Shown in pieces: positions 15,768 to 51,735 of a stretch of 64,000 nucleotides of DNA. Numbering within the stretch: position 1 is the stretch's first letter; the number at the start of each line of letters is the position of its first letter. This DNA is from an uncultured Bacilli bacterium (GTDB taxonomy: Bacteria; Bacillota_I; Bacilli_A; RF39; UBA660). The notes below the pieces were generated by a model, which was not told the DNA's origin, did no database searches, and saw only the letters and a program-made list of their open reading frames with translations. The position numbers and the translations under genes are program-made. The stretch lies in NCBI GenBank assembly GCA_934167875.1, contig CAKPMC010000005.1, positions 882 through 64,881 of the forward strand. Reading direction: 5' to 3'.

Positions 15768-17309
15768 TTATTTTTTACCTAATTCTGCTAGTTTTTTCTC
15801 TTTATCAATTCTCATAAATAAAGCTTCAGGGCAACCAACTTCATAAGAATTATCACTTAAGTAAGTTAATTCACTTCTAGAATTATTAATCTGCGTCTTT
15901 ATTTTTTCACTTGTATCAGGTAAATATGGTCTTAAGAAAATACCACATACACGAATAGACTCCAATAAGTTATATAAAACTGTTTCTAATCTATCTTTTT
16001 TACTTTCATCTTTTGCTAAAACCCAAGGTTCAGCTTCGTCGATATATTTATTGCTTCTTCTTAATACATCAAATATTTCATCAAGTGATGCACCTATTTC
16101 TAAATTGTCCATTTTCTTTTCAATTTTACTATCAAGATTTTGAATCATAGAAATTAACTCATTATCATAAGTGTCTAAAACATTTTTATTACTAACTTTT
16201 CCATCAAAATATTTATTAACCATAGAAATAGTACGATTAACCAAATTACCTAAAACATTAGCTAAATCACTATTAATTCTTTCAATTAATAAATCATAAG
16301 TTAAACTACCATCTTGTTGATAAGGAATTTCATGAAGTAAATAATAACGAATTGCGTCTACTCCAAACTCATTTACTAAATCATCAGCATAAATAACGTT
16401 TCCTTTAGACTTACTCATTTTACCATCACCTACTAATAACCATGGGTGACCAAATACTTGTTTTGGAAGTGGTAAATCAAGACTCATTAAGAAACAAGGC
16501 CAATAAATAGTATGAAAACGAATAATATCTTTTCCTATTAAATGTAAGTCAGCAGGCCAATATTTACTAAACATTTCACTACTTCCATCTGGATCATAAC
16601 CAATATTAGTAATATAATTTGTTAGAGCATCAAGCCATACATAAACAACATGTTTAGGATCAAAATCAACTGGAATTCCCCAATTAAAAGAAGTACGAGA
16701 AACACATAAATCTTGAAGACCTGGCTTAATAAAATTATTAATCATTTCATTTTTTCTAGACTCTGGTTTAATAAAATCAGGGTGTGATTCAATATACTCT
16801 ATTAATCTATCTTGATACTTAGAAAGTCTAAAAAAGTAAGCTTCTTCACTTTTTGGTTCCACATCACGACCACAATCAGGACACTTTCCATCAACTAACT
16901 GACTTTCTGTAAAGAATGATTCACAAGGAGTACAATAAAGACCTTCATATTTACCTAAATAAATATCACCTTTATCATACATTTTTTTAAATATTTTCTG
17001 TACAATTTCTTCATGATGCTTATCAGTAGTTCTTACAAATTTATCATAACTTGTGTTCATAATATCCCAAATATTTTTGATTTCAGCGGCAACACCATCA
17101 ACAAATTCTTTAGGAGTAATTCCTTTTTCTTCTGCTTTTATCTGAATTTTCTCACCATGTTCATCAGTTCCTGTTTGAAAATAAACATCAAATCCTTTTA
17201 ATCTTTTATAACGTGCAATACTATCTGCCAAAACTATCTCATAAGTATTACCAATATGAGGTTTTCCTGATGTATAAGCAATAGCTGTTGAAATATAATA
17301 TTTTTCCAT
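15768..17309 (-). CDS. metG: Methionine--tRNA ligase (short form, without a C-terminal tRNA-binding domain)
   Basis: HIGH-type motif GKPHIGN, KMSKS motif and zinc knuckle CPDCG. Start refined to MEKYYIST (ATG at 17309, GGAGAG RBS). The track ORF would overlap dut. Confidence 0.95.
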   Translation of the reverse strand: MEKYYISTAIAYTSGKPHIGNTYEIVLADSIARYKRLKGFDVYFQTGTDEHGEKIQIKAEEKGITPKEFVDGVAAEIKNIWDIMNTSYDKFVRTTDKHHEEIVQKIFKKMYDKGDIYLGKYEGLYCTPCESFFTESQLVDGKCPDCGRDVEPKSEEAYFFRLSKYQDRLIEYIESHPDFIKPESRKNEMINNFIKPGLQDLCVSRTSFNWGIPVDFDPKHVVYVWLDALTNYITNIGYDPDGSSEMFSKYWPADLHLIGKDIIRFHTIYWPCFLMSLDLPLPKQVFGHPWLLVGDGKMSKSKGNVIYADDLVNEFGVDAIRYYLLHEIPYQQDGSLTYDLLIERINSDLANVLGNLVNRTISMVNKYFDGKVSNKNVLDTYDNELISMIQNLDSKIEKKMDNLEIGASLDEIFDVLRRSNKYIDEAEPWVLAKDESKKDRLETVLYNLLESIRVCGIFLRPYLPDTSEKIKTQINNSRSELTYLSDNSYEVGCPEALFMRIDKEKKLAELGKK

Positions 17310-17319
17310 AATATCTCTC

Positions 17320-17799
17320 CTATCTACCTGTAGAACCAATACCACTCGTTCTAACATTATCTATATTTTCTTCATTATCAACTGTTAAAAATGGAATAAA
17401 AATACCTTGGCAAATTTTATCACCTTTTTTTACTACATAATCTTTATCTCCATGATTTTCCAGTTTAATCCACATATGACCTTCGTTATCAGGATTATTA
17501 TAATAATCTCTATCAATAACGCCAACTTGATTGCACATTCTAACATTATATTTAAATCCTTGACTACTTCTTACCACTATTAGTAAAACTTCTGATGAAT
17601 TCATATTAGCCTTAACACCAAGTGGAAATTTTTTTATTTCACCAGGTTTCAAAGTAAAATCAAATAAAGATTCAAAATCATAACCAGCACTTTCTTTCGT
17701 ACTTCTCTTAGGAATATTATATGATTCATATAATTCTTTATCATCACTTACATCATTTTTAAATTGTTCAAAACTAATTTTTTCAAAATATCTTGCCAT
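17320..17799 (-). CDS. dut: dUTP diphosphatase (trimeric dUTPase family)
   Basis: Motifs SAGYDF, VVRSSQG, GVIDRDYY, KGDKICQ and C-terminal RTSGIGSTGR. ATG at 17799 lies 6 nt after GGAGG. Confidence 0.8.
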   Translation of the reverse strand: MARYFEKISFEQFKNDVSDDKELYESYNIPKRSTKESAGYDFESLFDFTLKPGEIKKFPLGVKANMNSSEVLLIVVRSSQGFKYNVRMCNQVGVIDRDYYNNPDNEGHMWIKLENHGDKDYVVKKGDKICQGIFIPFLTVDNEENIDNVRTSGIGSTGR

Positions 17800-17811: not shown

Positions 17812-18021
17812 AAAAAGCGACTATTCTTCCATAAGGACGAATAATCGCGGTACCACCTTAATTTATAGCATAACACTATACACTTAAACTCTTAACGCGA
17901 GTAACGAATAACTATAATTATCAGCTCCAGAACCATTTATTATTGTTCCTCTATATCTACTTTCACCTAACTAGACTCTCTCAAATAGATTTCCAATAAC
18001 TCTTTCCTTCAAAACATTTAT
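17812..18021 (-). promoter_or_regulatory. T-box riboswitch leader, probable Met specifier
   Basis: The minus strand carries Stem I boxes AGAGAG and GGTGAAAG and a candidate specifier AUG in AAUAAAUGGUUC. The T-box sequence AAUUAAGGUGGUACCGCG follows, then the terminator GCGATTATTCGTCC-TTAT-GGAAGAATAGTCGC-T6. Confidence 0.85.
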
Positions 18022-25785: not shown

Positions 25786-25801
25786 TATTTCCCGGGAAAT
25801 A
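25786..25801. promoter_or_regulatory. Noc-binding site (NBS) palindrome
   Basis: TATTTCCCGGGAAATA matches the B. subtilis NBS consensus at 16 of 16 positions. It is embedded in the 26-bp palindrome AAAATTATTTCCCGGGAAATAATTTT between rsmI and pth. Confidence 0.8.
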
Positions 25802-30184: not shown

Positions 30185-31888
30185 CTAATTTATTGATATC
30201 ATATCTTCACCAAATAATTCGATAGCTTCATCAGTTATAGACCCATTATTTTTATCTACTATATTATTAGCAATTGAAATATCTGGTAATTTTTTATATT
30301 CATATTTAATATTATTATTCATATTTAATATATAATTTTCCTTTTCGTGATTCCACCTATCATTAGTTACCAATGCAATATCATAATGCTTATTATATAT
30401 TTTTTCAAATAGCTTGGAAATCTTTTCAATAATTTTAATACCTCTATCAACCATTGACTCATAAGCAAAAGAAATCAGTACTTCATTCTCACCAACTACT
30501 CTTACTACTCCATCTGAAATATAACATGCAACTGCACCAAATTCATTATCTAATGCATAATCATTAAGTTTATTCCAATTATTTTCAAAGTCCAATTTAT
30601 TTTTTTTATTTGCCCTAGCAAAGCAATTATTAATAATAATATCTAAAATTTCATCATATTTTTCTGAAGTTTCATCAGATAATTGTGGACTAATTATTTC
30701 CCGGGAAATAATTTTATCGGTATTATTATTTGTTTTTTGATAATCATTATCATTAACAGCATTACTAACTTGAAGTTCTTGATTATCTTTCACAGGAGTT
30801 GTTGTATCTGGTAATTTATGATAATCATTATCATTAATATTTTGTTTTGTTAGAATATTCTTATTAATAAATGATAATAATTCTATTTCTAAAGCAATTC
30901 TAATATTTGAAGAAAATTCAGCATTTTTCAATGTATTATTTAATGAATTTAAAAAACTTAATAATAAATCAATGTTATACTTATTTTCATTATTAACATA
31001 ATACGAAACACATAAATTTTTACACAGATTTATCATATCTTGAATAAATACAACAAAATCTTTACCATTATCATATATACTATCAATAAAGCTAATAATA
31101 TAATTTATGTTACCATTCATCACATTATCTAAAAATTTCATACGATCTGGTAATGATACAATTCCATTCACCTTTTCAAAATCTTCAATTGTAATATTAG
31201 AATTGGAATAAGCATTTAATTTATCCAACATACCAACAGCATCACGCATACCACCATCTGATAATTCAGCTATTCTACTTAAAATTTCATTTTCTACTTT
31301 AATATTTTCCTTTTCGCATATATACTCTAACCTCTTAGTAATATCTTCACAGCTAATGCGATGAAATTCAAGGCATTGACACCTAGATATAATAGTGACT
31401 GGTACTTTATGCAAATCAGTTGTAGCTAAAATAAAAATTACATGTTCTGGTGGTTCTTCTAAAGTTTTTAATAGTGCATTAAAAGCACCAATTGATAGCA
31501 TATGAACCTCATCAATAATATATACCTTATATTTTAATTGACCAGGTACTAAATTAATCTTACTTTTAATTTCACGAATTTCATCAACACCATTATTAGA
31601 AGCAGCATCAATTTCTATAATATCAGAATTTGAATTATCACTAATAGATAAACAATTTTTGCATTTTCCACAGGCATCGCCATCATTTAATTCCAAACAA
31701 TTAACAGTTTTTGCTAATATTTTAGCGATAGAAGTTTTTCCAATTCCACGCGGACCAGAAAACATATAAGCATGACAAACTTTATTATTAATAATTGCAT
31801 TTTTCAATATTTTAATAACAATATCTTGGCCAATTACATCTTCTAAAGTAGACGGTCTATATTTTCTATATAAAGCTTGATAAGACAT
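30185..31888 (-). CDS. dnaX: DNA polymerase III subunit gamma/tau
   Basis: Walker A GPRGIGKTS, zinc module CGKCKNC, DEVHMLS and SRCQ. Start MSYQALYRKYRP at 31888 after GGAGGTG. Confidence 0.93.
   Translation of the reverse strand: MSYQALYRKYRPSTLEDVIGQDIVIKILKNAIINNKVCHAYMFSGPRGIGKTSIAKILAKTVNCLELNDGDACGKCKNCLSISDNSNSDIIEIDAASNNGVDEIREIKSKINLVPGQLKYKVYIIDEVHMLSIGAFNALLKTLEEPPEHVIFILATTDLHKVPVTIISRCQCLEFHRISCEDITKRLEYICEKENIKVENEILSRIAELSDGGMRDAVGMLDKLNAYSNSNITIEDFEKVNGIVSLPDRMKFLDNVMNGNINYIISFIDSIYDNGKDFVVFIQDMINLCKNLCVSYYVNNENKYNIDLLLSFLNSLNNTLKNAEFSSNIRIALEIELLSFINKNILTKQNINDNDYHKLPDTTTPVKDNQELQVSNAVNDNDYQKTNNNTDKIISREIISPQLSDETSEKYDEILDIIINNCFARANKKNKLDFENNWNKLNDYALDNEFGAVACYISDGVVRVVGENEVLISFAYESMVDRGIKIIEKISKLFEKIYNKHYDIALVTNDRWNHEKENYILNMNNNIKYEYKKLPDISIANNIVDKNNGSITDEAIELFGEDMISIN
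30695..30710. promoter_or_regulatory. Noc-binding site (NBS) palindrome inside the dnaX coding sequence
   Basis: TATTTCCCGGGAAATA matches the consensus at 16 of 16 positions. It is read in dnaX as the codons for I-I-S-R-E-I-I. Confidence 0.75.
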
Positions 31889-31945
31889 AATACACCTCCA
31901 AAACACTTATATTATACCATTAAAAGCTATTAATTTTAACTATAA

Positions 31946-32395
31946 TCACCTTTTTTCAGCAAAAAATTGTTTTAAAAGTTTTCCACAATCATCATTTAAA
32001 ACAGAACCACACAAATTTACAGGTAAACCATAGTTTTTATCATTTAAAATCTTTTCCACAACTTCTTTTTCAGCATATTCAGGAATAGTACCATAATAAA
32101 TATTAGATATTCTTGATTGATTAATAGCACTTGCACACATAGGACATGGAAACATAGTGACATACATAGTACAACCAATTAATCTCCAATTTTTAAGTTT
32201 TGCACATGCCTTTTCAATAGCTATAATTTCAGCATGTTTAACTGCGCAGCAACTATTTTCTTTTAAATTATGACCTCTAGCTATTACTTTACCATTTTGC
32301 ACAATAATGGCTCCAACGGGGATTTCACCCTTAATATAAGCCTTTTCAGCCTCAGCTAAGGCTAATTTCATATAATATATATTTTTATTTTCCAT
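31946..32395 (-). CDS. tadA: tRNA-specific adenosine deaminase
   Basis: Zinc motifs HAEIIAI and PCPMCASA. Start refined to MENKNIYYM (ATG at 32395). The track ORF would overlap the SRP RNA. Confidence 0.9.
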   Translation of the reverse strand: MENKNIYYMKLALAEAEKAYIKGEIPVGAIIVQNGKVIARGHNLKENSCCAVKHAEIIAIEKACAKLKNWRLIGCTMYVTMFPCPMCASAINQSRISNIYYGTIPEYAEKEVVEKILNDKNYGLPVNLCGSVLNDDCGKLLKQFFAEKR

Positions 32396-32413
32396 AATTT
32401 CACCTACAAAAAA

Positions 32414-32487
32414 GGTGCACATAAATATTATATGTTAAGGCTGCTATCTTCCGATCCTGACCTGGTTCCATAAATACTTATTGCACC
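32414..32487 (-). ncRNA. ffs: Signal recognition particle RNA, minimal 4.5S-like form
   Basis: The minus strand reads GGTGCAATAAGTATTTATGGAACCAGGTCAGGATCGGAAGATAGCAGCCTTAACATATAATATTTATGTGCACC followed by T6. It has the conserved domain IV core CCAGGUCAGG..CGGAAG..AGCAGCC and closing helix GGUGCA/UGCACC. Confidence 0.8.
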
Positions 32488-32494
32488 AATGAAT

Positions 32495-32523
32495 ATAATA
32501 TTATATTTTATAAAAAAGAGCAA
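32495..32523 (-). promoter_or_regulatory. Promoter of the SRP RNA
   Basis: TTGCTC, a 17-nt spacer, then TATTAT. The start of the GGTGCA helix lies 7 nt downstream. Confidence 0.6.
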
Positions 32524-32532
32524 CTTTTTTTA

Positions 32533-32548
32533 TGTTTCACGTGAAACA
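32533..32548. promoter_or_regulatory. parS site 1 (ParB/Spo0J centromere)
   Basis: TGTTTCACGTGAAACA fits consensus TGTTNCACGTGAAACA perfectly. The palindrome extends to 18 bp: ATGTTTCACGTGAAACAT. Confidence 0.85.
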
Positions 32549-32549
32549 T

Positions 32550-32558
32550 TGTGGAAAA
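32550..32558 (-). promoter_or_regulatory. DnaA box (TTTTCCACA) fused to parS 1
   Basis: The plus strand reads TGTGGAAAA, 1 nt after parS 1. It has one mismatch to TTATCCACA and is the same variant that dominates oriC here. Confidence 0.65.
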
Positions 32559-32637
32559 TATAATTTAAATACATATATTTATAATTAAATTATTTAAAAT
32601 TATAGTGTTTTGATACAAATATTAACTAATTTTGCTA

Positions 32638-32653
32638 TGTTTCACGTGAAACA
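32638..32653. promoter_or_regulatory. parS site 2
   Basis: TGTTTCACGTGAAACA, a perfect match. Confidence 0.85.
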
Positions 32654-32662
32654 TGTGAATAA
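32654..32662 (-). promoter_or_regulatory. DnaA box-like (TTATTCACA) fused to parS 2
   Basis: The plus strand reads TGTGAATAA directly abutting parS 2. One mismatch to the consensus. Confidence 0.55.
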
Positions 32663-32857
32663 CTATTATTTTATTAATATAATATATAAATAAAATAATA
32701 GTATGTAAAATTTAATCATTTCAAAAAAACTAATAAAATCAGTACTATATAAAGTAAAATATTATGATCTTAGTACGTTAATATTTTATATAGTAAATAT
32801 AATTATTATAAGCTATATTATTTTCTAATATCATATAAATATTTAGAATAATATATA

Positions 32858-32873
32858 TGTTTCACGTGAAACA
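32858..32873. promoter_or_regulatory. parS site 3
   Basis: TGTTTCACGTGAAACA, a perfect match. Confidence 0.85.
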
Positions 32874-32874
32874 T

Positions 32875-32883
32875 TGTGGATAA
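32875..32883 (-). promoter_or_regulatory. Consensus DnaA box fused to parS 3
   Basis: The plus strand reads TGTGGATAA, the exact complement of TTATCCACA, 1 nt after parS 3. Confidence 0.75.
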
Positions 32884-32885
32884 AT

Positions 32886-32901
32886 TATTTCCCGGGAAAT
32901 A
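32886..32901. promoter_or_regulatory. Noc-binding site (NBS) in cassette 3
   Basis: TATTTCCCGGGAAATA matches at 16 of 16 positions, 2 nt after the DnaA box. Confidence 0.8.
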
Positions 32902-33112
32902 ATTTGAAACATCGTATATTACTCAAATAAATATATAATAACAAAATTATTAAATAGTGATGTAAATTAATAGCTGTTTTTTACACCAAATCACATAAGT
33001 AACAAGTAAGTAATATATTAATATTTATTTACATTACAGTAAAAATTAATTTTAAATTATGTAATTTAAATTAATAATTGTTTTAAGTACTTCATTAAAA
33101 TAAATAAAACAA

Positions 33113-33128
33113 TGTTTCACGTGAAACA
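33113..33128. promoter_or_regulatory. parS site 4
   Basis: TGTTTCACGTGAAACA, a perfect match. Confidence 0.85.
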
Positions 33129-33137
33129 TGTGGATAA
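33129..33137 (-). promoter_or_regulatory. Consensus DnaA box fused to parS 4
   Basis: The plus strand reads TGTGGATAA directly abutting parS 4. Confidence 0.75.
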
Positions 33138-33140
33138 ATT

Positions 33141-33156
33141 TATTTCCCGGGAAATA
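33141..33156. promoter_or_regulatory. Noc-binding site (NBS) in cassette 4
   Basis: TATTTCCCGGGAAATA matches at 16 of 16 positions, 3 nt after the DnaA box. Confidence 0.8.
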
Positions 33157-33190
33157 ATTTATAAAAAATAGCTTTTAACAATTAATAAAA

Positions 33191-33199
33191 TTATCCACA
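33191..33199 (+). promoter_or_regulatory. Consensus DnaA box, inverted relative to the other four
   Basis: TTATCCACA on the plus strand, 19 nt before the fifth parS-like palindrome. Confidence 0.7.
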
Positions 33200-33218
33200 A
33201 ATAAATAAATCAAAATAT

Positions 33219-33234
33219 AGTTTCACGTGAAACT
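33219..33234. promoter_or_regulatory. parS-like site 5 (outer positions changed)
   Basis: AGTTTCACGTGAAACT keeps the inner 14 bp of parS and the palindrome. It lies 13 nt downstream of the gyrA stop. Confidence 0.65.
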
Positions 33235-33246
33235 AAAAAAGTATGT

Positions 33247-35892
33247 CTATTCAGACACACTTTCATTATTTTCACTTTCACTATTATCAAGTTCAGTAGC
33301 AGACTCAGTTGATTCTTCATCTTCCTTAATAATGGTAGAAACAGTTGCTACCTTTTGATCATCTTTAAGTTTAATTAAACGAACACCTTGAGTAGCACGA
33401 CCTAAGGTAGATATTTGATCCATTGCCATTCTCATTACGATACCACTATCAGTAATAATAACTAAATCTTCTTCACCAGTAACAGCCTTTAATGATACTA
33501 ACATACCATTCTTTTCAGTAACATTAAGTGCCTTAACACCCTTACTACCACGATGCGTTAATCTATATTCGTCAATTGGAGTCTTCTTTCCATAACCTTT
33601 TTCAGTAACTATTAATACCTGTTCATCAGAAGTAATTATTTCGCCACCTATAACCGTGCTATTACCTAATTCAATACCTTTAACACCAGAAGCAGTACGA
33701 CCCATGACACGAATTTCGTTTTCCACAAATCTTACCATTCTTCCATTTGATGCACCAATAATAACTTCATTTTCTCCAGTAGTTTTACGAACAGATATAA
33801 GTTCATCATCTTCTTTTAACGTTATAGCAATTTTTCCACTACTACGTATATTATCAAATTCACTTAAATCAGTACGTTTAACAATACCATTTTTAGTAAC
33901 AAATACAAAGTAATTATATTCATGTTCCTTAGCACTCAATGAAACAATAGAATTAATGCTTTCACCTTTTTCCACAGGTAATAAATTAACTATTGGCAGT
34001 CCTTTACTTTGTCTGCTAAATTCTGGAACCTCATAACCTTTCATTCTGTATACCTTACCTTTATTACTAAAGAAGAATATATAATCATGAGTTTCCATAT
34101 TAATCATCTTTTCCACAAAATCCTCTTCATTAGTAGCCATACCTTTAATTCCTACTCCGCCACGATTTTGTGTACGATAAGCATCAACTGGCATTCTCTT
34201 AATATAACCTTTATTAGTTAATGTAATTAATATGTTATCCACAGGTATCAACGATTCATCCTCTATATATTCAATTGCTGTCATATCAATTTGAGTTCTA
34301 CGATCATCACTGTACTTACGCTTAATTTCTAGCATTTCCTCTTTAATAATATCTAGAACTCTTTGTCCATTAGCTAAAATATCCTTATAATCAGCTATCT
34401 TAACAAGTAAATCATTTAATTCAGCTTCTACTTTTCCACGTTCTAATCCAGTTAAACGACGTAATCTCATCTCAAGAATACTGTTAGCTTGAATATCATC
34501 TAAAGCAAATCTAGACATTAAATTATTTCTTGCCTCATCATCACTTTCAGCAGCCCTAATAATATGTACAACTTCATCGATATTATCAAGTGCTATACGT
34601 AATCCTTCTAAAATATGAACTCTTTCTTCAGCTTTTCCTAAATCATAACGAGTTCTTCTTAAAATTACTTCCTTTTGATGATCTATATATTTAGAAATAA
34701 TATCCTTTATACCTAAAGTTCTAGGAGTTTGACCATCAAGAACTAAGAAAATAATACCATAAGATATTTGAAAATTAGTATGCTTATATAATTGATTCAA
34801 AATAACTTGTGCATTAGCATCTTTCTTTAAAGTAATAGTAATTTTAATACCATCTTTTAAATCAGTATGATAATCAGAAATACCTTCAATAGTTTTATTA
34901 TGAACAAGTTCAGCAACTTTATTTTTAAGTTCCATAGTATTAACACCGTAAGGAACTTCTGTAATAACTATTTGATGATGATTACCATTTTCTTCAATAG
35001 TAGCTTTACTACGAATAGTAATGGAACCTCGACCTGTTTCATAAGCTTTCTTAATACCAGAATTACCTAAAATAATACCACCTGTAGGAAAATCTGGTCC
35101 TTTAATATATTGCATCAATCCCATGGTATCAATATCTGGATTATCAATATACGCAACACAACCATCTATAACTTCTCCTAAATTATGTGGTGGAATATTA
35201 GTAGCCATACCAACTGCAATACCCATAGATCCATTAACAAGTACATTAGGAAATCTAGAAGGTAATACTTTAGGTTCTTTTCTTGTAGCATCAAAGTTGT
35301 CATCCATATCAACAGTATCTTTATTAATATCCCTTAATAATTCCAATGAAATTTTAGCAAGCCTTGACTCGGTATAACGCATTGCTGCTGCGCCATCTCC
35401 TTCAATATTACCAAAATTACCATGGCCATCAATTAACATATATCTTTGGTTAAAATCTTGCGCTAAACGTACCATTGCTTCATAAATAGAACTATCTCCA
35501 TGTGGGTGATAATTACCCATAACTTCTCCGACCGTTTTAGCGCTCTTTCTGTGAGGTTTATCAGGTGTATAACCAGATTCATACATAGACCATAAAATAC
35601 GTCTGTGAACAGGCTTTAAACCATCTCTAAGGTCAGGTAATGCACGAGACTTAATAACACTCATTGAATATTCCATAAAAGAAGTTTTAACTTCATCTAC
35701 AATGTTATTATGATCTAATCTATCTCTTTCATGAAAATATCCACTAAAATTACCATTAGATTTAATTATATCAATATCTTCTTGAGAATTATTATCATTA
35801 GTATTAGAAGTATCATCAGTAACATTATCAGTATTATTATCTTCTTCACTAGCTCTAGCTAATAATTCATTTAAATCATCTTTGTTATCCAT
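33247..35892 (-). CDS. gyrA: DNA gyrase subunit A, with an acidic N-terminal extension and an acidic C-terminal tail
   Basis: Motifs YSMSVIKSRALPDLRDGLKPVHRRILW and active-site AAMRYTE, plus beta-pinwheel CTD repeats. ATG at 35892 lies 7 nt after GGGAGG. Confidence 0.97.
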   Translation of the reverse strand: MDNKDDLNELLARASEEDNNTDNVTDDTSNTNDNNSQEDIDIIKSNGNFSGYFHERDRLDHNNIVDEVKTSFMEYSMSVIKSRALPDLRDGLKPVHRRILWSMYESGYTPDKPHRKSAKTVGEVMGNYHPHGDSSIYEAMVRLAQDFNQRYMLIDGHGNFGNIEGDGAAAMRYTESRLAKISLELLRDINKDTVDMDDNFDATRKEPKVLPSRFPNVLVNGSMGIAVGMATNIPPHNLGEVIDGCVAYIDNPDIDTMGLMQYIKGPDFPTGGIILGNSGIKKAYETGRGSITIRSKATIEENGNHHQIVITEVPYGVNTMELKNKVAELVHNKTIEGISDYHTDLKDGIKITITLKKDANAQVILNQLYKHTNFQISYGIIFLVLDGQTPRTLGIKDIISKYIDHQKEVILRRTRYDLGKAEERVHILEGLRIALDNIDEVVHIIRAAESDDEARNNLMSRFALDDIQANSILEMRLRRLTGLERGKVEAELNDLLVKIADYKDILANGQRVLDIIKEEMLEIKRKYSDDRRTQIDMTAIEYIEDESLIPVDNILITLTNKGYIKRMPVDAYRTQNRGGVGIKGMATNEEDFVEKMINMETHDYIFFFSNKGKVYRMKGYEVPEFSRQSKGLPIVNLLPVEKGESINSIVSLSAKEHEYNYFVFVTKNGIVKRTDLSEFDNIRSSGKIAITLKEDDELISVRKTTGENEVIIGASNGRMVRFVENEIRVMGRTASGVKGIELGNSTVIGGEIITSDEQVLIVTEKGYGKKTPIDEYRLTHRGSKGVKALNVTEKNGMLVSLKAVTGEEDLVIITDSGIVMRMAMDQISTLGRATQGVRLIKLKDDQKVATVSTIIKEDEESTESATELDNSESENNESVSE

Positions 35893-48959: not shown

Positions 48960-49988
48960 ATGGATAAAGAAGTAGTTGAATTATATTTAGATGACATAAT
49001 TCCTAACCGTTTTCAACCACGTGAAGTATTTAATGAAGAGGCACTAAGAGAATTATCAGCATCTATAAAAGAACATGGTGTAATTCAACCAATTATTGTT
49101 AGAAAAATAGGTGACAAATATGAAATAATAGCTGGTGAAAGAAGATATAAAGCATCAGCATTAGCAGGACTAACAAAAATTCCTGCCATAATTCGCAACC
49201 TAGATGATAAAGAAGCTTCTAAAGTTGCCCTTTTAGAGAATCTTCAAAGAAAAGATTTAACAGCAATAGAAGAAGCAAGAACATATCAAAAAATACTTGA
49301 ATTAGATTCAATGACACAAGAAGAATTAGGTCGTACAATGGGTAAATCTCAAGCAGCAATAGCTAATAAAATGAGATTATTATCATTACCAGATGAAGTA
49401 CAAGAGGCTTTATTAAAAGATCAAATATCAGAACGTCATGCTAGAAGTTTATTAAACTTAGATACTCCAGAAGAACAAATTAATATGTTAAGAAAGATAA
49501 TATCTAATCGTATGACAGTAAGAGAATTAGATAATGAAATTAGAGAACTAAAAGGTGAAACATCAATTCCATCAACTATTAACAATGATAGTGTTACAAT
49601 AGTAAATGAAACTGGTCCAAAAGTAGAAGTAAATAATAATGAATCACATGAAGTGCCAACATTAAATTTACCAGAATCACCTTCAAATGAATTAGATGAT
49701 GATTTCTCACCATTATCTTTTATTCCTAAAGATGATACTCCAGAAGTATTAGAAGCTTTATCTGATATTGAAGAACCAGAACCAATAGAAGAAAAATCAA
49801 ATACTGATGATTTTAAAGCTATTGATAATTTATTAAAATCAACGAAATTGTATACAATGGAAGATGCTGTGAATGAAATAAAAAGTGTAGTAGCTAAAAT
49901 TCAAAATAAAGGAATAAAGATTACTACTGATGATATGGATTTTGAAAATACTTATCAAATAGTTATTAAAATTGATAAAAACAATTAA
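48960..49988 (+). CDS. noc: Nucleoid occlusion protein Noc (ParB paralog), atypical termini
   Basis: ParB N-domain IIPNRFQPR and GERRYKA. The HTH recognition stretch GKSQAAIANKMRLL resembles B. subtilis Noc (GKGQSTIANKLRLL as recalled). Position between rsmG and soj supports the call. Confidence 0.8.
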   Translation: MDKEVVELYLDDIIPNRFQPREVFNEEALRELSASIKEHGVIQPIIVRKIGDKYEIIAGERRYKASALAGLTKIPAIIRNLDDKEASKVALLENLQRKDLTAIEEARTYQKILELDSMTQEELGRTMGKSQAAIANKMRLLSLPDEVQEALLKDQISERHARSLLNLDTPEEQINMLRKIISNRMTVRELDNEIRELKGETSIPSTINNDSVTIVNETGPKVEVNNNESHEVPTLNLPESPSNELDDDFSPLSFIPKDDTPEVLEALSDIEEPEPIEEKSNTDDFKAIDNLLKSTKLYTMEDAVNEIKSVVAKIQNKGIKITTDDMDFENTYQIVIKIDKNN

Positions 49989-50078: not shown

Positions 50079-50867
50079 ATGGGAAAGATAATTTCATTAG
50101 TAAATCAAAAAGGTGGAGTAGGAAAAACAACAACAAGTATTAATCTTTCTGCATCACTTGCTTATTTAGGTAAAAAAGTATTATTAATAGACTTAGATCC
50201 ACAAGGTAATACAACAACTGGTGTAGGAATTAATAAAGGCGATATCACAAATAGTGTTCATGAAGTTTTAACTGGTAAATGTGAAATTACTGAAGCAATT
50301 ATAAAAACAAAGTATAAAAATTTATATGTTTTACCTGCAACTATTAATCTAGCAGGATTAGATATGGAATTAATTGAAAAAAGTAAAGTAAATCAAGGCT
50401 TCGCTAAGAATGCCCAATTAAAAACATTTTTAGATCCAATTAAAGACTTATTTAATTATATAATAATTGATTGTCCCCCTTCTTTAGGATTAATAACTAC
50501 TAATGCACTAACAGCTTCAGATTCAGTTATTATCCCAGTTCAATGTGAATTTTTTGCTTTGGAAGGAATTACTCAATTATTAAATACTATTATGTTAGCT
50601 CAAAAGAATTTAAATCCAAATCTAGATATAGAAGGTGTTTTATTAACAATGCTTGATTCTAGAACATTGTTAGGACTAGAAGTAGTAGAAGATATAAGAA
50701 GATTCTTTAAAGAAAGAGTATACAATACTATAATTCCAAGATTAGTAAAATTAACCGAAGCACCTTCACATGGAAAACCAATATTAGCTTATGACCCAAA
50801 ACATAGGGCAACAGAAGCTTATATAAATTTAGCAAAGGAAGTGATTGCACGAAATGGAGACATCTAG
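50079..50867 (+). CDS. soj: Chromosome partitioning ATPase ParA/Soj
   Basis: Deviant Walker A NQKGGVGKTTT, DLDPQGN and DCPPSLG. Confidence 0.93.
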   Translation: MGKIISLVNQKGGVGKTTTSINLSASLAYLGKKVLLIDLDPQGNTTTGVGINKGDITNSVHEVLTGKCEITEAIIKTKYKNLYVLPATINLAGLDMELIEKSKVNQGFAKNAQLKTFLDPIKDLFNYIIIDCPPSLGLITTNALTASDSVIIPVQCEFFALEGITQLLNTIMLAQKNLNPNLDIEGVLLTMLDSRTLLGLEVVEDIRRFFKERVYNTIIPRLVKLTEAPSHGKPILAYDPKHRATEAYINLAKEVIARNGDI

Positions 50868-51735
50868 AAGAAAGGCTTTAGGAAGAGGCCTAGAAGAATT
50901 ATTTAATAATGAACCAATGGATTATGAAAAAATTGAAGAAAAAATAATGGATGAATCTACAAATGAAGAAATAGTTGAATTACCATTATCTGAATTAAGA
51001 AGCAATCCATATCAGCCAAGAAAGAACTTTGATGAAGGAGCATTACAAGAATTAGCTAACTCTATTAAAGAACATGGCGTATTTCAACCAATTATTGCTA
51101 AAAAGAGTATAAAAGGTTATGAAATAATAGCTGGTGAGCGTAGAGTAAAAGCCTCAATTCTAGCAGGAAAAGAAACTATTCCAGCTATTTTGAGAGATTT
51201 TTCAGATCAAGATATGATGGAAATTGCTTTACTTGAAAACTTACAAAGAGAAAATCTTAATGCTTTAGAAGAAGCTATAGCTTATAAAAAGTTAATAGAT
51301 GAATTATCATTAACACAAGATAAACTTGCTGAAAGATTAGGAAAAAGTAGAAGCCATATTACTAATATGTTAGGATTATTATCATTACCAGAAGAAGTAA
51401 AAGATATGATAATGGCTAATAAATTATCTATGAGTCATGCACGTGTTCTAAGTAAGATAGAAGATAGTGAAAAAGTTAAACAATTAGCAGAAAAAATAGT
51501 TGTAGAAGGCTTAAGTGTAAGAGAGGTTGAAGATCTTTCACATGAAAATATTTATGAAAAGAAAAATACACAAGTAAGACATGAAACTAATCGCAACGAA
51601 TACAAAGTAATAGAAGAAGAATTATCAGATAAATTTGGAACCAAAGTAAAAATTAAAAATAATAAAATTGAAATTCATTTTGTAAACCCTAATGATTTAA
51701 ATAGAATTTTAGAAATTATTGGACTAGATAACTAA
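50854..51735 (+). CDS. spo0J: Chromosome partitioning protein ParB/Spo0J
   Basis: Motifs ALGRGLEELF, NPYQPRK and GERR. HTH stretch GKSRSHITNMLGLL and C-terminal NDLNRILEII. ATG at 50854; the track TTG start is 50845. Confidence 0.9.
   Translation: METSRRKALGRGLEELFNNEPMDYEKIEEKIMDESTNEEIVELPLSELRSNPYQPRKNFDEGALQELANSIKEHGVFQPIIAKKSIKGYEIIAGERRVKASILAGKETIPAILRDFSDQDMMEIALLENLQRENLNALEEAIAYKKLIDELSLTQDKLAERLGKSRSHITNMLGLLSLPEEVKDMIMANKLSMSHARVLSKIEDSEKVKQLAEKIVVEGLSVREVEDLSHENIYEKKNTQVRHETNRNEYKVIEEELSDKFGTKVKIKNNKIEIHFVNPNDLNRILEIIGLDN

Follow-up and report, generated by a model that had tools for sequence, protein, structure and literature searches.

In a stretch of 64,000 nt from an uncultured bacterium of the Bacilli, a low-GC inhabitant of the gut (GenBank assembly GCA_934167875.1, contig CAKPMC010000005.1, positions 882 to 64,881; hereafter, the window), the spacer between gyrA and ffs/tadA is a chromosomal centromere, in which ParB-loading parS sites form an array at a distance of 9 kb from the replication origin, oriC. 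In this species and the relatives nearest to it, almost all parS have a predicted high-affinity DnaA box 0-1 bp from the edge that faces oriC. The array is the core of an oriC-proximal DnaA-box cluster, in which about 15 boxes are found in 3.2 kb. Judging from these sequences, we lean modestly toward a model in which the parS-box units would couple the functions of DnaA and ParB.

The array is housed in a non-coding spacer of 749 bp (32498-33246) between ffs/tadA and the 3' end of gyrA (Table 1). It contains four copies of the perfect parS, TGTTTCACGTGAAACA, each of which is really an 18-bp palindrome, ATGTTTCACGTGAAACAT. In the 64-kb window, no other parS with two or fewer mismatches was found except for the degenerate AGTTTCACGTGAAACT at 33219 (0.14 expected by chance). 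These sites have the properties of chromosomal parS: they contain the 16-bp palindrome TGTTNCACGTGAAACA, they are origin-proximal, and soj and an R173-type parB are encoded in the same window. The G+C content of the window is about 26% and the GC skew changes its sign at about 42 kb, at dnaA. Because of this switch, the array is placed approximately 9 kb from oriC. The gene order around the origin is gyrA, gyrB, recF, dnaN, dnaA, oriC, rpmH, mnmE, mnmG, rsmG, noc, soj and spo0J. On the gyrA side, parS1 to parS4 are followed by the 9-mers TGTGGAAAA (after 1 nt), TGTGAATAA (0 nt), TGTGGATAA (1 nt) and TGTGGATAA (0 nt), respectively. A first-pass annotation, made by a model from the letters of this DNA, had described these four fusions and a fifth consensus box, which faces the others 19 nt from parS5; positions, sequences and spacings all proved to be correct. 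Its wording that every perfect parS is fused holds for the 64-kb window and cannot be demonstrated genome-wide. In total, the array has five boxes in 650 bp, with inter-box distances of 100-250 bp. No ORF or Rfam RNA accounts for the array spacers. We considered a second origin at this place and ruled it out: the GC skew switches at dnaA, and the boxes are widely spaced. A mobile or repeat element was also ruled out; the units are confined to this syntenic locus.

The adjacency of parS and box is not expected by chance. Outside the array, 9-mers with one or no mismatch to the box occur in the window at a rate of 3.3e-4 per position per strand. If the sites were independent, the probability of an abutting box at all four parS would be approximately 1e-11. 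Moreover, ACA or ACAT followed by a box occurs only at these four sites in the whole window. The four sites are not fully independent because parS3 and parS4 are duplicated: both are copies of one 50-nt unit, which comprises parS, box and a binding site for Noc (Noc-binding site, NBS). The comparative data described below compensate for this.

It should be considered whether the 9-mers are really DnaA boxes. Boxes 3, 4 and 5 are exact copies of the consensus TTATCCACA, and boxes 1 and 2 fit TTWTNCACA, the DnaA-box consensus in current use (e.g. PMC7561715 and PMC5043019). At oriC in the window, clusters of TTTTCCACA and TTATCCACA, the same types as in the array, flank dnaA; as had been claimed, TTTTCCACA is dominant there (42393, 42451, 42494, 42582 and 40885). 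Domain IV of the encoded DnaA carries the conserved stretches PRQ, PKIG and DHSTVMH, which we take to contribute the DNA contacts. This domain is canonical and aligns with that of Bacillus subtilis DnaA (8BTG), and the protein scores 511 bits against TIGR00362. We compared the flanks of the 38 parS in the window and the six closest species. A box was present in 25 of the 38 gyrA-side flanks (29 when up to two mismatches were allowed); on the distal side, all 38 flanks were devoid of it. Alignment of the 29 9-mers shows no variation at T2, T4, C6, A7, C8 and A9, and all 27 substitutions fall at position 1, position 3 (15 A and 14 T) and position 5 (21 C, 4 T, 2 G and 2 A). From these features, we consider that the array boxes probably bind DnaA.

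Alternatively, the 9-mer might extend the ParB site or represent a third, degenerate parS half-site, bound by an additional subunit of ParB or Noc. TTATCCACA and TGTTCCACG agree at six of nine positions, and inspection of the sequence shows the box as a direct repeat of the parS right half with a period of 9-10 nt. Furthermore, in the units with an NBS the box stands between two sites of the ParB family. However, a ParB dimer on a palindrome is symmetric, whereas the motif is one-sided. The one-sidedness and the confinement of the variation to TTWTNCACA therefore argue against an extended site or third half-site. Where the box has its invariant T2 and A9, parS has G; A or T occupies position 3, and position 5 is G or A in two relatives (L083 and L143), although parS needs C or T there. 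The majority of the parS of relatives do not have the motif, other lineages carry it in flipped and distant geometries, and it is also selected within gyrA, far from any parS. Thus, we judge this explanation highly improbable. The first-pass annotation had named it as one that could overturn the DnaA reading; the asymmetric flanks and the DnaA-type degeneracy did not bear it out.

For comparison, we fetched 80 loci of about 14 kb from relatives via GyrA similarity (70-97% identity), a sample that we term unbiased, and computed the orientation and offset controls on these loci. The closest sequences come from uncultured gut metagenome-assembled genomes (MAGs) labelled 'Tenericutes bacterium', whose proteins are 99-100% identical to the window ParB. 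A syntenic parS array with two or more sites was found downstream of gyrA in 53 of the 80 relatives, and no parS was found outside this array in the loci of about 14 kb. The arrays have a total of 65 boxes, compared with 10.7 after dinucleotide shuffling. Of 67 TTWTNCACA boxes within them, 38 abut a parS; random placement gave 1.7, and at most 7 in 1000 trials. The histogram of parS-box offsets peaks sharply at 0-1 nt. Thus, the adjacency is far above chance in the relatives as well as in the window. Among the relatives, 25 of 215 parS are fused, and 20 of these 25 belong to the six closest species (GyrA identity of at least 87%; 20 of 34 parS). The box is on the gyrA side in 23 of the 25 and on the opposite side in two. 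Absence of the fusion from sister genomes, which would have spoken against it, was not found: sister species and strains possess it.

Between the window and the arrays of six relatives (L080-L085), only the gyrA terminator with parS5, the NBS-box-parS units, the box-parS units and the block of parS1, ffs promoter and ffs can be aligned. The spacers between the units are unalignable even at 97% GyrA identity. Nine contigs of the same species (identical YbaB; L280-L288) have four to seven full parS and gyrA-tadA gaps of 791-1293 bp. Whole cassettes with parS-box units at their ends have been gained or lost between these arrays, and the repeats are the points at which spacer cassettes have been exchanged. 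Thus, the copy number of units in the centromere is polymorphic within the species. In these strains, the box is kept at almost every parS, with occasional single-base decay to CTATTCACA or TTATCCATA. The facing box 5 has a counterpart at 7-17 nt in two relatives (L081 and L083) and is lost in one conspecific strain (L281).

These observations bear on a neutral explanation, in which a chance ancestral parS-box pair was copied through the array by unequal recombination, and the adjacency has no function. The gain and loss of whole cassettes between strains, the clear duplication of parS3 and parS4, the dispensability of boxes in most relatives and the decay of single boxes within the species would all be expected from it. 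It does not explain why the units outlast the alignability of the spacers, down to 77% GyrA identity and including a relative with another parS variant (L143), nor why substitutions spare the six positions critical for DnaA. Different abutting geometries arose in several lineages, and in unrelated phyla the fused pattern is enriched about 5-fold over the control. The synonymous-site selection for boxes in the adjoining gyrA is independent evidence against neutrality. Concerted evolution helps to spread the unit, and it leaves the position-specific conservation and the persistence across species unexplained. We therefore regard a purely neutral origin as quite unlikely.

Two further observations were made on the fetched loci. 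Many parS of relatives (e.g. in L010 and L012) are placed inside longer, variable palindromes, such as ctaacaa-parS-ttgttag and cagtgaa-parS-ttcactaa, and these extensions could be prone to form hairpins or cruciforms. In addition, six syntenic low-GC loci (L058, L064, L104, L108, L153 and L158) include labels of Muribaculaceae, Bacteroides or Sphaerochaetaceae, and NCBI puts 'Candidatus Scybalousia' under Bacteroidales. Because gene content and gene order are Bacilli-like, these labels are probably errors of binning or taxonomy.

We scanned 185,579 species genomes for parS followed, after 0-1 nt, by TGTGRAWAA, and used the reversed box AAWARGTGT as a composition-matched control. The fused pattern was found at 79 loci and the control at eight. 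The gyrA-tadA-dnaX context was present at 47 of the 79 loci (70 matches), which belong to low-GC gut Bacilli, Tenericutes or 'Mycoplasma/Clostridium sp. CAG' MAGs, and at two of the eight control loci. Outside the low-GC gyrA context, 32 loci were found against six for the control (approximately 5-fold), and these mostly adjoin mnmG-rsmG-parA-parB in Proteobacteria. In Alphaproteobacteria and other phyla, a single parS abutted by a box, often as parS-C-TGTGGATAA, was observed in the mnmG-rsmG-parA-parB region (L014, L022, L025, L037, L038, L040, L051, L062, L069, L072, L074 and others). In a member of Polyangia (L018), a parS is touched by two tandem boxes.

Other arrangements of parS and box exist. 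L143 has repeated units of the form NBS-aa-TTWTNCACA-a-parS, in which parS is the variant TGTTCCACGTGGAACA. The flipped box TGTGGATAA lies at 0-1 nt in L121, L125 and L137. The boxes of L114 are on the distal side, 2-7 nt from parS, and those of L142 are 18 nt from parS. In L089, the order is NBS, 10 nt, box, 11 nt and parS. In L158, TAATCCACA lies 7 nt from six parS. The recurrence of a parS-box association across lineages suggests a function.

The boxes are not limited to the parS array. The window contains 29 TTWTNCACA boxes, 15 of which lie within 31018-34243 (3.2 kb); among these, tadA accounts for four, the array for five and the 3' part of gyrA for four. As in the DnaA-box clusters (DBCs) of B. 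subtilis, several boxes are clustered outside oriC, in this case 9 kb away. The first-pass annotation had called the array a DnaA-box cluster; it is a true cluster, and it reaches into both neighbouring genes. In close relatives, tadA has 4.8 boxes per kb, whereas the 5' part of gyrA has about 0.2. All four boxes in gyrA have the form xxT-GTG-GA(A/T)-AAx and encode PVDN, FVEK, PVEK and FVEN, so that each depends on the rare valine codon GTG (13 of 198 valine codons in five genes). In relatives with at least 80% GyrA identity, the orthologous box codons are GTG, forming TGTGGAWAA, in 43 of 66 cases, compared with 71 of 1225 (5.8%) at the other valine codons of the same genes (odds ratio 30; Fisher P ~1e-32, phylogeny uncorrected). 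As judged from this codon choice, the putative boxes embedded in gyrA are under synonymous-site selection. Because the species that keep GTG include some without abutting boxes, the selection for boxes beside the centromere is independent of parS adjacency.

The units at parS3 and parS4 contain a third element, which the first-pass annotation overlooked, and its description of the units was incomplete in this respect. The exact NBS palindrome ATTTCCCGGGAAAT occurs five times in the window (0.16 expected). Three copies are at 25787, 30696 and 46197, and the other two are in the parS3 and parS4 units, where the order is parS, DnaA box and NBS, with the NBS 27-28 bp away. In addition to the palindrome, a ParB paralogue (48960-49988) with Q, K, S and R at the four specificity positions is encoded, which identifies the sites as NBS; the paralogue scores 289.6 against the NCBIfam noc model, below the cut-off of 315. 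In close relatives, NBS-parS pairs peak at 27 bp. Pairs of parS and NBS 6-30 nt apart were found at at least 119 loci, nearly all of them in uncultured gut Bacilli MAGs of this group. A fixed parS-NBS register was considered as the primary constraint and rejected: in 174 pairs, the gaps spread over 6-30 nt and few held a box, although the box count is underestimated because this sample leaves out loci fetched earlier. The NBS inside dnaX (window 30683-30709) is preceded by TTGTGGACTAATT, which is nearly the box and spacer of the parS3 unit, TTGTGGATAAATT, but has no parS. The Noc-type paralogue (342 aa for the ORF as called) begins about 38 residues later than ParB, without the N-terminal segment, and has a long acidic C-terminal extension.

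Directly upstream of a putative ffs promoter on the minus strand is parS1 (both within 32498-32548 of the window); the promoter has a -35 element (TTGCTC), 17 nt and a -10 element (TATTAT). Two relatives (L080 and L084) conserve this block, from parS through the promoter to ffs. Given the adjacency of parS1 and the promoter, transcription of ffs-tadA-dnaX could be influenced by ParB or DnaA.

This arrangement raises the idea that the boxes are DnaA operators for the neighbouring genes, acting on gyrA read-through or on the ffs-tadA-dnaX operon, and that the contact with parS is incidental to a small intergenic region. ParS1 and box 1 lie approximately 10-45 nt upstream of the putative -35 element of ffs in the conserved promoter block, dnaX is a replication gene, and in Pseudomonas aeruginosa an operon near the par genes, gidAB-parAB, is regulated by DnaA (PMC13438810). 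However, a plausible promoter is near only one of the five boxes. A promoter scan of the array gave 12 hits against 12.1 expected, which is uninformative in DNA of 26% GC. The boxes are bound to parS (0-1 nt) far more tightly than to gene boundaries, and those within gyrA and tadA are unsuited to the role of operators. We give an operator function a small probability.

We return to the model in which the parS-box units couple DnaA and ParB. The genes for DnaA, Soj, ParB and the Noc-type protein are all encoded in the window. In this model, the centromere would hold or titrate DnaA, much as the DnaA-box clusters do in B. subtilis. With every box in contact with a site where ParB nucleates, the occupancy of DnaA and the loading or sliding of ParB may hinder each other, either through steric occlusion or because DnaA forms a roadblock on one side. 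DnaA would also be placed where ParB turns Soj into the form that inhibits DnaA. The data themselves show the identity of the sites, their conservation and one-sidedness, the selection on synonymous positions and the genes for the four proteins; DnaA binding by the boxes, together with the direction and mechanism of the coupling, is what we infer from the sequence.

Several points weigh against this model. With 100-250 bp between them, the boxes are not packed as in the tight clusters on which DnaA oligomerizes cooperatively. Among the relatives, 35 of 53 arrays are boxless. Since most of the relatives with an array lack the fusion, the fusion is not required for centromere function, and the view that it is a general trait of the centromeres of this lineage has to be abandoned (25 fused parS of 215 in the 80 relatives). 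The units spread by recombination between repeats, and therefore the uniformity within an array is partly due to concerted evolution. Furthermore, the statistics from relatives are uncorrected for phylogeny. Finally, the varied geometry and the mixture of 0-nt and 1-nt offsets in one array make a rigid DnaA-ParB contact less likely. The first-pass annotation had reasoned that at base-pair distance the two proteins must either clash or contact each other; the other spacings and the flipped orientation disfavour the fixed contact, and occlusion, a roadblock or plain co-localisation would be favoured over it.

A wider possibility, which we put forward tentatively and consider rather unlikely, is that the 50-bp unit of parS, DnaA box and NBS is a docking module for three proteins. 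ParB, DnaA and Noc would be bound side by side, forming a cell-cycle hub encoded in cis in gut Bacilli with reduced genomes. If this were true, initiation potential, centromere loading and segregation, and nucleoid occlusion would be read from one piece of DNA, and the box geometries of the sister lineages would be alternative solutions for the same coupling.

The features of the window are summarized in Table 1. Apart from these, the ORF at 15768-17357 is preceded, on the minus strand, by a T-box leader at 17830-18021 (RF00230, 95.6 bits).

Table 1. Coordinates of the parS sites, predicted DnaA boxes, Noc-binding sites and relevant genes in the window
Feature	Position	Strand	Remarks
parS1, perfect 16-bp ParB site	32533..32548	.	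just upstream of putative ffs promoter; aligns with last parS and ffs promoter of relatives
DnaA box 1, TTTTCCACA	32550..32558	-	1 nt from parS1
parS2, perfect	32638..32653	.	
DnaA box 2, TTATTCACA	32654..32662	-	0 nt from parS2
parS3, perfect	32858..32873	.	
DnaA box 3, TTATCCACA (consensus)	32875..32883	-	1 nt from parS3
Noc-binding site, ATTTCCCGGGAAAT	32887..32900	.	28 bp centre-to-centre from parS3
parS4, perfect	33113..33128	.	
DnaA box 4, TTATCCACA (consensus)	33129..33137	-	0 nt from parS4
Noc-binding site, ATTTCCCGGGAAAT	33142..33155	.	28 bp centre-to-centre from parS4
DnaA box 5, facing box, TTATCCACA	33191..33199	+	opposite orientation, 19 nt from parS5
parS5, degenerate, AGTTTCACGTGAAACT	33219..33234	.	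overlaps T-tail of gyrA terminator
Four DnaA boxes in the 3' (C-terminal-domain) coding region of gyrA	33719-33727, 33968-33976, 34109-34117, 34235-34243	+	each via rare Val codon GTG
Four TTWTNCACA boxes in tadA	31979, 32052, 32198, 32295 (31979..32303, 325 bp)	+	
ffs, small SRP RNA	32398..32497	-	borders array; RF00169, 60.6 bits
gyrA	33247..35892	-	borders array on oriC side; terminator 33264-33237
dnaA	40922..42331	-	flanked by oriC box clusters
Noc-type ParB paralogue	48960..49988	+	specificity residues Q173, K179, S184, R201
soj/parA	50079..50867	+	
spo0J/parB	50845..51735	+	R173-type specificity residue

The coordination of replication, segregation and division has so far been explained largely in trans, by the action of Soj on DnaA, of Spo0J on Soj, and of Noc. 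Here, the link appears to be written into the DNA: the boxes touch the ParB nucleation sites, and the Noc sites follow at a further distance of one to two helical turns. If the boxes bind DnaA, the unit of about 50 bp would be a compact and easily synthesised substrate. It would bear on whether DnaA blocks or directs ParB-CTP clamps or is evicted by them, on whether Noc joins, and on whether DnaA titration linked to the centromere times initiation.

DnaA at a centromere is already known. In Caulobacter crescentus, the centromere movement that DnaA triggers depends on a DnaA site located in the parS region (Mera, Kalogeraki and Shapiro 2014, as cited in PMC4468827 and PMC6399470). The first-pass annotation, which knew of no such units, was therefore too strong in implying that there was no precedent. 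As far as these two citing accounts describe it, the Caulobacter system likewise has a DnaA box inside a chromosomal centromere, which is only a few kb away from the origin, and there DnaA acts at the centromere separately from its role at the origin; here, co-location is what the sequence gives. The same accounts place the Caulobacter site within the parS region and describe neither a repeated box per parS at 0-1 bp nor Noc sites. Caulobacter is, moreover, an Alphaproteobacterium with a polar-anchored centromere. Our literature searches found no report of repeated abutting parS-DnaA-box or parS-box-NBS units, nor of an NBS paired with parS or DnaA boxes.

B. subtilis cells deleted for the DBCs initiate replication early, an effect that is synergistic with the loss of Spo0J (Okumura et al. 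2012, PMC3245932). Those clusters resemble the present one in that consensus boxes are clustered near but outside oriC, in a Firmicute with Soj and Spo0J. In that report, however, DBCs and parS are merely both origin-proximal, with no physical interleaving reported, whereas the cluster described here is interleaved with the parS array and reaches into coding DNA via codon choice. On chromosome 2 of Vibrio cholerae (rctA/parS2) and in Deinococcus radiodurans (cisII/cisMP), both the initiator and the ParB of the replicon bind to one short region, and replication and partition are affected reciprocally (PMC3688505 and PMC7671480). Initiator and ParB sites share one locus there, as the predicted sites do here. 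In contrast to the present case, those replicons are secondary and plasmid-derived, and their sites are at the origin itself or within it; V. cholerae uses RctB rather than DnaA as the initiator.

With regard to Noc, a genetic link is known in Staphylococcus aureus, where Noc restrains DnaA-dependent initiation (PMC5540599). The window shares with the Noc-NBS system of nucleoid occlusion (PMC7383237) the exact NBS palindrome and a Noc-type paralogue with Q173, K179 and R201. The known NBS sites are scattered over the origin-proximal chromosome, whereas here an NBS lies 27-28 bp from parS with a box between them. At the level of sequence, DnaA at the centromere, until now a peculiarity of Caulobacter, recurs in Firmicute-type genomes and, more rarely, near mnmG-rsmG-parAB in other phyla.

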